A stretch of 47,812 bases of DNA, taken from IMG/VR virus record IMGVR_UViG_649989947_000010, positions 1 through 47,812 of that record. One strand, given 5' to 3'. The translations under genes were made by a program, and so were the position numbers. This stretch comes from a virus. Its lineage: Duplodnaviria > Heunggongvirae > Uroviricota > Caudoviricetes. Positions 11,451 through 11,653 of this stretch are shown in pieces (the first letter of the stretch is position 1; each line of letters opens with the position of its first letter). The notes beneath the pieces are model-generated. The model saw only the letters and a program-made list of their open reading frames with translations. It searched no databases and was not told the origin of the DNA.

Positions 11451-11627
11451 ATTAGTGTAATATCGCCTCAATGAATCGTGATTTATAGAGCGATTTAGCT
11501 GTTAGCCGCGACAGGCGCGGCGGCAAGTATGGCGGGGTAGTGACTCCTTCCCCCTCATGACGCCGAGTTGCCAGGTTGACCATACGCCTAAGTGGCAACA
11601 CCGAAGTGCGTTACGAGCTTCCAGTTT

Positions 11628-11653
11628 GCCCATCTTCGGGTGGGCGTTTTTTT
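11628..11653 (+). terminator. Rho-independent terminator
   Basis: GCCCA-TCTTCGGG-TGGGC hairpin followed by GTTTTTTT. Confidence 0.6.

Follow-up and report, generated by a model that had tools for sequence, protein, structure and literature searches.

What occupies the untranslated stretch that follows the methyltransferase gene dmt, ahead of the tRNA genes and ban, in P1-like phages? We took up this question in a window of 47,812 nucleotides (nt), the whole of IMG/VR virus record IMGVR_UViG_649989947_000010 (Caudoviricetes), in which an initial annotation, made from the letters alone, had marked positions 11460-11653 as about 170 nt of GC-rich non-coding sequence ending in an intrinsic terminator and forming a candidate small RNA. 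The window represents a P7-type P1-like phage: it is 98.4% identical to P7 over 751 nt and 99.6% identical over 231 nt around the locus, where P1 and other P1-like phages are 91-96% identical to it. We find that the stretch contains a conserved, pseudoknotted RNA domain, which we call X and which is also found directly upstream of the small RNA DicF in lambdoid prophages. Because X is common to DicF loci and the module that follows it is swappable, we favor, at about an even chance, the view that positions 11470-11653 are a DicF-type cassette, composed of X and a terminator-ended small RNA in which the DicF body has been replaced, and that the cassette also halts part of the transcription ahead of the tRNA and ban genes.

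What, then, is X? Copies of the domain were collected from a scan of viral contigs, from a scan of one genome per species, and from phage records, and a consensus was derived with RNAalifold from 24 non-redundant copies. The architecture is that of a multi-helix junction with helices P1, P2, P3, and P4 and short connectors. Its parts in the window are as follows.

11493-11612, plus strand: the conserved structured RNA domain X, about 115 nt, matched by covariance model R1 (90.4 bits, E = 3.5e-21).
11505-11521, plus strand: helix P2, GCCGCG / ACAGG loop / CGCGGC (GCCGCGACAGGCGCGGC), from the RNAalifold consensus.
11522-11564, plus strand: helix P3, closed by GGC (11522-11524) with GCC (11562-11564), followed by an internal loop and then hairpin P3b.
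11527-11532, plus strand: 5' strand of the pseudoknot, GUAUGG, in the internal loop of P3, pairing with 11580-11585.
11533-11554, plus strand: hypervariable hairpin P3b, within P3, with the pyrimidine-rich loop UAGUGACUCCUU.
11565-11601, plus strand: helix P4, GAGUUGCCA / UGGCAACAC plus an inner GGU/GCC, from the RNAalifold consensus.

The covariance model built from the alignment finds exactly one copy of X in each of 79 sources, and the match given above is the single significant one in the window, with no second copy. Helix P2 has 5-6 base pairs (bp), with 96-98% of its cells paired, and changes solely from G-C to G-U. P3 is a long irregular arm with P3b at its tip, and its closing pair has gone from U-A to C-G in P7-type copies. 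P4 consists of 9 + 3 bp; six of its nine outer pairs have changed on both sides (for example, in Izhakiella and Citrobacter), and its nearly invariant loop holds the 3' strand of the pseudoknot, CCAUAC (11580-11585). The pseudoknot itself, which joins the internal loop of P3 to the loop of P4 by 6 bp, was added to the consensus and is not part of the covariance model; among 74 copies 99.3% of its cells are paired, and a compensatory change is seen in P1-type copies, which have GCAUGG with CCAUGC. Helix P1 (GUUGUGG/CCACAAC), the outermost, is an 8-bp closing helix in lambdoid copies.

In the alignment of 24 sequences, 96.5% of cells are paired and changes on both sides are found in 11 pairs, an outcome seen in 0 of 500 shuffles, with slid controls at 34-51%. 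When 74 distinct copies were used, 96.6% of the pair cells were paired and 16 pairs were compensatory (again 0 of 500 shuffles; slid partners, 33-55%). Single-sequence folding, meanwhile, is marginal when compared with shuffles (z = -1.78 for the window and -0.81 for P1). The evidence for the predicted structure of X is comparative, drawn from conservation and covariation, and single-sequence folding is uninformative alone.

The initial annotation had pointed to hairpins and a G-rich tract in this region. These do exist: GCCGCGACAGGCGCGGC at 11505-11521 and GGCGGGG...CCCCC at 11531-11554 are the conserved helices P2 and P3b. They had been noted as isolated elements, however, whereas they are parts of one pseudoknotted multi-helix domain common to lambdoid prophages. 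The covariance-model search that had been proposed as a check gave no match: Rfam 15, at gathering and at permissive thresholds, has no family for the locus and none that matches X in phage Evi or at six further loci. Nor did we find a description of X in the searchable literature, older subscription papers being outside that reach.

How widely is X distributed, and in what company? The full-length region is present in 18 of 20 P1-like phage records, and 505 plasmids in PLSDB match it, 474 of them over at least 80% of its length, which bears out the conservation among P1-like relatives on which the candidate had been made to depend. The plasmid matches are mostly non-mobilisable replicons and, among the matches listed, mostly about 90-130 kb in size; a P7-type group (at least 99% identity, 87 records) can be told from a group near 89% that includes P1. 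Besides the P1-like phages, a sensitive search of phage records returned about 45 lambdoid phages, which match positions 11506-11603 only, at 75-82% identity. Where P2-P4 of the window were compared with lambdoid phage copies, identity was 80-82%. Copies of X were found in Escherichia, Shigella, Citrobacter, Salmonella phage F1055, Serratia, Erwinia, Izhakiella, and Trabulsiella. In the lambdoid phages X is found on the pL side of the repressor gene, ahead of genes of the kil or dicB type.

The connection with DicF is one of strict position. In phage Evi X is followed after 16 nt by a genuine DicF (Rfam, 76 bits), in Escherichia coli K-12 the domain is found within the unannotated 340-nt spacer between ydfC and dicF, and an independent pattern scan placed X directly upstream of DicF in 126 of 126 copies, including that of the K-12 prophage Qin. 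The locus is not new as such, since the P1 GenBank record flagged it as "dicF-like" in 2004. Because the lambdoid matches flank DicF on its upstream side, the similarity recorded there is mainly to the element upstream of DicF and not to DicF itself.

What follows X is nearly always of one kind but differs in sequence. A hairpin with a T-run lies within about 120 nt 3' of X in 58 of 59 distinct flanks, the exception being a decayed Shigella copy. The modules that supply it differ: DicF in some copies; in others, any of six or more further GGCGG...CCGCC hairpins whose loops and 5' stretches are not alike; larger modules in phages of the F1055 and Erwinia types; and, in P1 and P7, CGAAGUGCGUUACGAGCUUCCAGUUU with a GCCCAUC hairpin. 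Phage D6, which is without X, has the identical terminator, preceded there by another long hairpin and another single-stranded stretch. In that phage (L164, 1760-2500) another non-coding leader of about 700 nt replaces the X region, with the terminator and everything downstream kept, an arrangement that fits the expectation for a swappable small-RNA cassette.

A further feature of these modules was seen in the F1055-, Erwinia-, Serratia-, Trabulsiella-, and Izhakiella-type copies, in which the terminator hairpin after X has a Shine-Dalgarno (SD) sequence and a start codon in its loop. The reading from that codon is AUG/GUG UUC UAC/UGC CG... (L128, F1055, about 2650-2720; also L157, L159, L155, and L140), and the hairpin may be a translation-sensitive terminator. 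The mini open reading frame (ORF; MFYR...) of the F1055- and Erwinia-type modules was rejected as a conserved protein because its length varies from 11 to 43 amino acids (aa).

How is X set in the P7-type locus? The remaining features of the window at this place are as follows.

11434-11461, no strand assigned: the divalent C1 repressor operator Oban (Op72a/b), from the sequence and from the protein_bind features of P1 and P7, mapped via the alignment of P1 and the window.
11435-11463, plus strand: the sigma-70 promoter P1ban, transferred by alignment from the P1 GenBank annotation and identical in the window.
11472-11497, plus strand: a 5' leader hairpin, AAUCG...CGAUU, in the minimum-free-energy folds of the window and of P1.
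11561-11663, plus strand: the "dicF-like region," a misc_feature of P1 record AF234172 (68791-68892), mapped by alignment.
11602-11627, plus strand: the linker CGAAGUGCGUUACGAGCUUCCAGUUU, 26 nt, mostly single-stranded, from the fold and its position.
11628-11653, plus strand: the intrinsic terminator, GCCCAUC, a UUCG loop, and GGUGGGC, then G + U7, from a terminator scan.

The gene dmt, which encodes a large methyltransferase, ends at 11443 (stop codon 11441-11443), and the first C1 operator half-site, ATTGCTCTAATAAATTT (11434-11450), overlaps its stop codon; the operator noticed there at the outset matches the annotated Oban/Op72. Promoter P1ban, situated between dmt and the terminator, has the -35 hexamer TTGCTC at 11435-11440 and the -10 hexamer TAATAT at 11458-11463, and it was missed by a generic promoter scan because its -35 is weak. 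From the position of the -10 hexamer, transcription would start near 11470 and give a transcript of about 184 nt to 11653. The unit of about 170 nt that had been proposed is non-coding and terminator-ended, as described, but its transcript is probably the longer one. Positions 11470-11653 are untranslated and stand at the head of the C1-controlled ban operon, just past P1ban. The 5' hairpin is restricted to P1-like phages and is conserved among them without covariation. Positions 11460-11653 have a GC content of 54%, and the structured core one of 61%, as against 47% for the whole window, so the stretch is GC-rich as had been stated.

The statement that there is no credible ORF here likewise holds. 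Plus-strand ORFs at the locus encode 26-49 aa and minus-strand ORFs 49 and 111 aa, and a Pfam scan of them gave no match above threshold. The ATG of a 47-aa ORF, at 11557, is absent in P1, and the ORFs are not conserved between P1 and P7. A small protein gene at the locus was rejected for the lack of a Pfam match and of a conserved start codon, "hypothetical protein" annotations in some phage records notwithstanding. About 1.5 kb downstream of the locus is untranslated as well; ARAGORN places tRNA-Asn and tRNA-Thr at 12119-12272 and a third tRNA at 14273.

The terminator was recovered by the scan at exactly the place assigned to it earlier, with a folding energy of -13 kcal/mol for its hairpin. 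It has a stem of 7-8 bp running from 11627/11628 to 11645/11646, a UUCG loop, and a U7 tail that ends at 11653, and the same terminator is kept in P1, P7, and D6. The match to the X model ends 16 nt 5' of the terminator stem. In lambdoid copies the position of the linker is taken by the RNase E-processed spacer and the 5' part of DicF, and in the window the linker is a candidate seed or processing region of a 3' small RNA. The 3' module (11602-11653) has Hfq-type sequence features, namely a GC-rich hairpin, U7, and CAGUUU just before the stem. It is not DicF: in P1 and P7 a different terminator hairpin stands in place of the DicF body.

On the strength of sequence, structure, conservation, context, and homology, we picture transcription, termination, processing, and function of the cassette as follows. 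When C1 repression is lifted, polymerase from P1ban would make the RNA of about 184 nt. A fraction of the transcripts would stop at 11653, yielding a small RNA with an Hfq-type 3' end, which would probably be cut in the linker, as RNase E does for DicF, leaving X as a stable 5' RNA and releasing a 3' small RNA of some 50 nt. The remaining polymerases would read through into the tRNA genes and ban. X would act in cis, by analogy with the DicF loci, as a module for folding or processing that decides what becomes of the transcript at the neighboring processing site and terminator. DicF is described as a product of termination within the dicBF operon and of RNase E, which cuts at the 5' end of DicF, between it and X; RNase III acts on transcripts that read through. 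In an hfq mutant infected with P1vir, ban and trnA are over-induced and the upstream genes dmt and hrdC are under-induced, an indirect hint at Hfq dependence of the 3' module.

Several findings weigh against the cassette. The DicF model (RF00039; gathering score, 48 bits) has no match in the window even at E <= 10, in a search in which the phage Evi copy, the positive control, scored 76.4 bits. The energy of a duplex between the 3' module and the start of K-12 ftsZ is no better than that of shuffles, in a crude test in which the DicF control was not significant either, and no pairing signal in favor of the 3' module as an ftsZ regulator emerged from that test. Outer helix P1 of X is not conserved in P1-like copies. 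Transcript, 3'-end, and processing data for P1 and P7 were sought in the literature and none were found; the earlier suggestion of a discrete small transcript or attenuation is the right kind of idea in view of the promoter-proximal unit, its conservation, and the homology to DicF loci. The cassette also leaves the pyrimidine-rich hypervariable loop of P3b unexplained. Lastly, X is far more elaborate than known processing guides need to be, and since its junction, pseudoknot, and near-invariant loops exceed those needs, another partner is hinted at.

Might that partner be the transcription machinery? The principal rival to the cassette, which we judge unlikely, is that X is a cis-acting processive antiterminator or anti-Rho RNA of a new structural class. 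It would act in the manner of HK022 put or Bacillus EAR, with a different fold, by binding polymerase or a termination factor, such that the adjacent terminator is passed and Rho is resisted across the long untranslated, tRNA-rich leader that precedes ban; in lambdoid phages it would act before kil or dicB. The placement of X, just past an early promoter in P1 and P7 and on the pL side of the repressor gene in cdtI, F1055, and pPE4, is the site of nutL and N in lambda and of putL in HK022, and the ORFs scanned around X in cdtI, F1055, and Evi contain no N-like Pfam domain. A strong terminator stands inside an operon that requires read-through to reach ban, with some 1.5 kb of untranslated sequence downstream to be transcribed. 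In addition, boxA-like GCUCU motifs flank lambdoid X and recur in the leader of the window at 12542 and 13036, and the loops of X are near-invariant across genera, which suggests a conserved host partner. On the other hand, no match to the covariance model of X turned up in the put regions of HK022, and X differs in architecture from the two-stem put RNA. In Qin-type prophages X comes after three ORFs, far from the promoter; D6 keeps the terminator and the downstream operon without X; and the strict adjacency of X to a terminator-ended module is not something that a processive antiterminator requires. Moreover, efficient suppression by X would make the terminated 53-nt DicF rare, yet this is the described functional species.

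Several observations on neighboring sequence touch on this question. The motif GCTCTTWCCGTTG, which resembles boxA (GCUCUUU/GCUCUUA) with a GU-rich stretch after it, is found in exact form at 12542-12554 and 13036-13048 (also at 12346-12358), and the boxA-like motif GTGCTCTCTTCGTTGTGG lies just 5' of X in lambdoid copies. Such motifs hint at Nus-factor, rrn-like antitermination in a leader rich in stable RNAs.

Could X instead work in trans? Here the hypervariable hairpin comes into play. P3b and its 3' strand are replaced wholesale between copies that are otherwise near-identical, P1 and P7 included, and the differences between those two phages are accompanied by compensatory changes. At least 41 distinct versions exist, nearly all of them hairpins of 4-7 bp, whose loops are 84% pyrimidine on average, typically with UCCU; the base pair that adjoins the conserved GGC is G-C, C-G, U-A, or A-U. 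X might then be a stable, structured RNA that is released from the leader and acts in trans, its core binding a host component and its P3b loop giving specificity, for example, as an anti-Shine-Dalgarno antisense or a tRNA-shaped decoy. We place this possibility, which is also unlikely, next after antitermination. A complex fold with near-invariant loops and junction strands would suit such a role, as would a P3b that is swapped wholesale yet remains a hairpin with a pyrimidine-rich loop. Likely processing sites flank X, the operon is rich in stable RNAs (three tRNAs and repeated long hairpins), and the topology is cloverleaf-like, a multi-helix junction with short connectors. No partner has emerged, however. 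The P7 loop has no complement elsewhere in the window beyond chance, and in 14 lineages cognate loops pair with the 1.2 kb downstream no better than non-cognate ones. The type of loop does not track the c4 immunity type, X is unrecognized by ARAGORN and by the Rfam tRNA and transfer-messenger RNA models, and nothing points to accumulation of X.

More specific roles for the loop were considered and rejected. An antisense action on a site in the same operon has against it the null complement search and by the random ranking of cognate loops. SD-like matches of the loop at kil, dicB, and an ORF of the window are expected of any CU-rich loop. The P7 loop has UAGUGA in common with the b2 target site of P1, but the b2 site of P7 differs, and a link between P3b and C4 immunity fails because the loop type is independent of c4 type, as in Ro157c2YLVW, which combines a P7-type c4 with a P1-type X. 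We also observed that in the Qin copy of K-12 (L162) the 9-mer GUUGAGGAC, on the 3' side of P3b (2310-2320), recurs at the dicB ribosome-binding site (2590-2605), which could be chance or a mimic of that site.

A third alternative, to which we give little credence, is that X is an aptamer that senses a ligand or factor, with the terminator as expression platform, the whole being a riboswitch-like attenuator of entry into the ban operon. The idea has in its favor that in nearly all copies the pseudoknotted domain lies 13-60 nt upstream of an intrinsic terminator. But the terminator modules downstream are unrelated in sequence among lineages, which makes a conserved alternative pairing between aptamer and terminator unlikely, and none was seen by inspection, no formal search having been made. 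The outer helix, which usually carries the switch, is lost in P1 and P7, and no Rfam riboswitch matched. The least credible reading, that the locus is a functionless spacer with the dmt terminator and fortuitous hairpins or a small protein gene, could appeal to the marginal fold energy in the window and P1 and to the "hypothetical protein" entries but is already contradicted by the comparative data, in that the 80-82% sequence identity between P1-like and unrelated lambdoid phages is confined to X, covariation backs the helices and pseudoknot, P1ban separates dmt from the terminator, and the ORFs are neither conserved nor matched to any family.

We return to the DicF-type cassette and to what its recognition would mean. 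What is new is that X is a domain in its own right, pseudoknotted and backed by covariation, that it is obligately coupled to terminator-ended modules that can be swapped, and that it has a hypervariable loop. Few bacterial small RNAs have been known for as long as DicF, and geneticists use P1 as a standard tool; X adjoins the one and lies at the head of the ban operon of the other, yet it has no Rfam family. The P1-like phage-plasmids that carry it number in the hundreds, in Escherichia, Salmonella, and Klebsiella. Control of processing or read-through by X, if it occurs, would account for the production of DicF-type RNAs and for the dosage of the toxic downstream genes dicB and kil or of the ban helicase. 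If, instead, antitermination is true, the classic dicBF operon of K-12 carries an unrecognized antitermination element, and P1-like phages and N-less lambdoid prophages would use it to pass a small-RNA terminator and transcribe long untranslated leaders rich in tRNAs and hairpins. A hypervariable loop in a near-invariant RNA is a natural experimental handle, being the exact point at which P1 and P7 differ.

The sequence around the cassette has features of its own. After tRNA-Thr, positions 12270-13170 contain four to five repeated, untranslated modules with long hairpin arms, ACAACAGGTAAGGG... and ...CTTACCGTTGTGATGAATGC, as direct repeats spaced about 200-280 nt apart, with a related first hairpin at about 11834-11925. 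Phages of the cdtI and F1055 types have similar hairpins after the small-RNA terminator, and these long repeated hairpins may be RNase III processing stems. The second of the long hairpins, at 12285-12345, encloses the T-arm-like GGTTCGAATCCCT; it is not called by ARAGORN and may be a tRNA remnant. A sub-threshold Rfam match to STnc100 (37.8 bits; gathering, 47) lies at 13047-13167, just before an ORF at 13201, and an STnc100-like leader is present also between DicF and kil or dicB in lambdoid phages and in D6. Just past the third tRNA, positions 14350-14533 match, at 79% identity, the leader that separates the pL promoter from X in cdtI (L004, 2240-2417), which indicates that the P7-type ban operon and lambdoid pL leaders have several shuffled non-coding modules in common. 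Positions 13201-14245 contain a hydrophobic ORF of 78 aa and another ORF, of 275 aa, whose N-terminus is like that of a lipoprotein; this place is taken by tciA/B/C in P1 and by terB in the P7 reference, so the cargo of the window differs from that of the P7 reference. Farther away, on the minus strand at 22963-23032, a full-length Rfam match to RNA-OUT (98.8 bits) indicates an IS10/Tn10-type insertion in the phage-plasmid. On the pR side of cdtI (L004, 29-217, minus strand), Rfam matches to C4 antisense RNA (68 bits) and IsrK (60 bits) adjoin an antirepressor gene, so that this lambdoid phage has an immI-like module as well as X.

How does the locus compare with known systems? It resembles the putL and putR sites of HK022 in that a cis-encoded, structured RNA lies just past an early phage promoter, upstream of terminators, in phages that appear to be without an N-type protein at that position. 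The put RNA is about 70 nt long, with two stems and a triple helix, whereas X, at about 115 nt, has a multi-helix junction and a pseudoknot. A search of the HK022 immunity region with the X model gave no significant match on either strand, and homology to put, suggested by eye from the short common strings GCGCGGCGG and ACCAUGCG, was rejected since the covariance model did not back it. Of a lambda-type nut site, X has only boxA-like GCUCU motifs, and we know of no N protein in P1.

The C4 antisense RNA of P1 and P7 (RF01695) is likewise a structured leader RNA of a C1-controlled P1 operon, with recognition loops that differ between P1 and P7. It has no similarity to X in sequence or model, there is no C4 match at the locus, copies of X vary in P3b type independently of c4 type, and no target sites in cis were found. 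Any likeness to tRNA is one of junction topology only: ARAGORN finds three tRNA genes and nothing more, and no Rfam match of the tRNA clan covers X.

There is a likeness in position and logic only, as there is to put, to the short RNAs made by termination near a phage promoter, before genes that need read-through. StxS, from PR'-tR' of Stx phages, is a regulatory RNA released by processing that derives from promoter-proximal termination. The 6S RNA of lambda is a promoter-proximal terminated transcript comparable to StxS. Both systems differ from the present one in using a late promoter with read-through via protein Q and in being without an X-like domain, whereas in P1 and P7 the promoter is repressed by C1 and there is no known antiterminator protein.

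Small RNAs released by RNase E, such as those derived from 3' untranslated regions (for example, MicL), share with the locus a stable upstream structure, a single-stranded cleavage region, and a terminator-ended, Hfq-type RNA. The RNAs of the 3' external spacers of tRNAs are a further example of small RNAs released beside a structured RNA by RNase E. X, in contrast, is neither a tRNA nor a simple stem-loop, and it is more conserved, pseudoknotted, and equipped with a hypervariable loop.

The nearest relative is the Qin-like dicF locus (ydfABC-dicF-dicB; DicF, RF00039). P1 and P7 differ from it in being without the DicF body, in the seed and the hairpin, in having X right after the promoter and not after three ORFs, and in that outer helix P1 is not conserved. 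What the two have in common is the same X immediately upstream, followed by a short, terminator-ended module, in an early operon under the control of the phage repressor.

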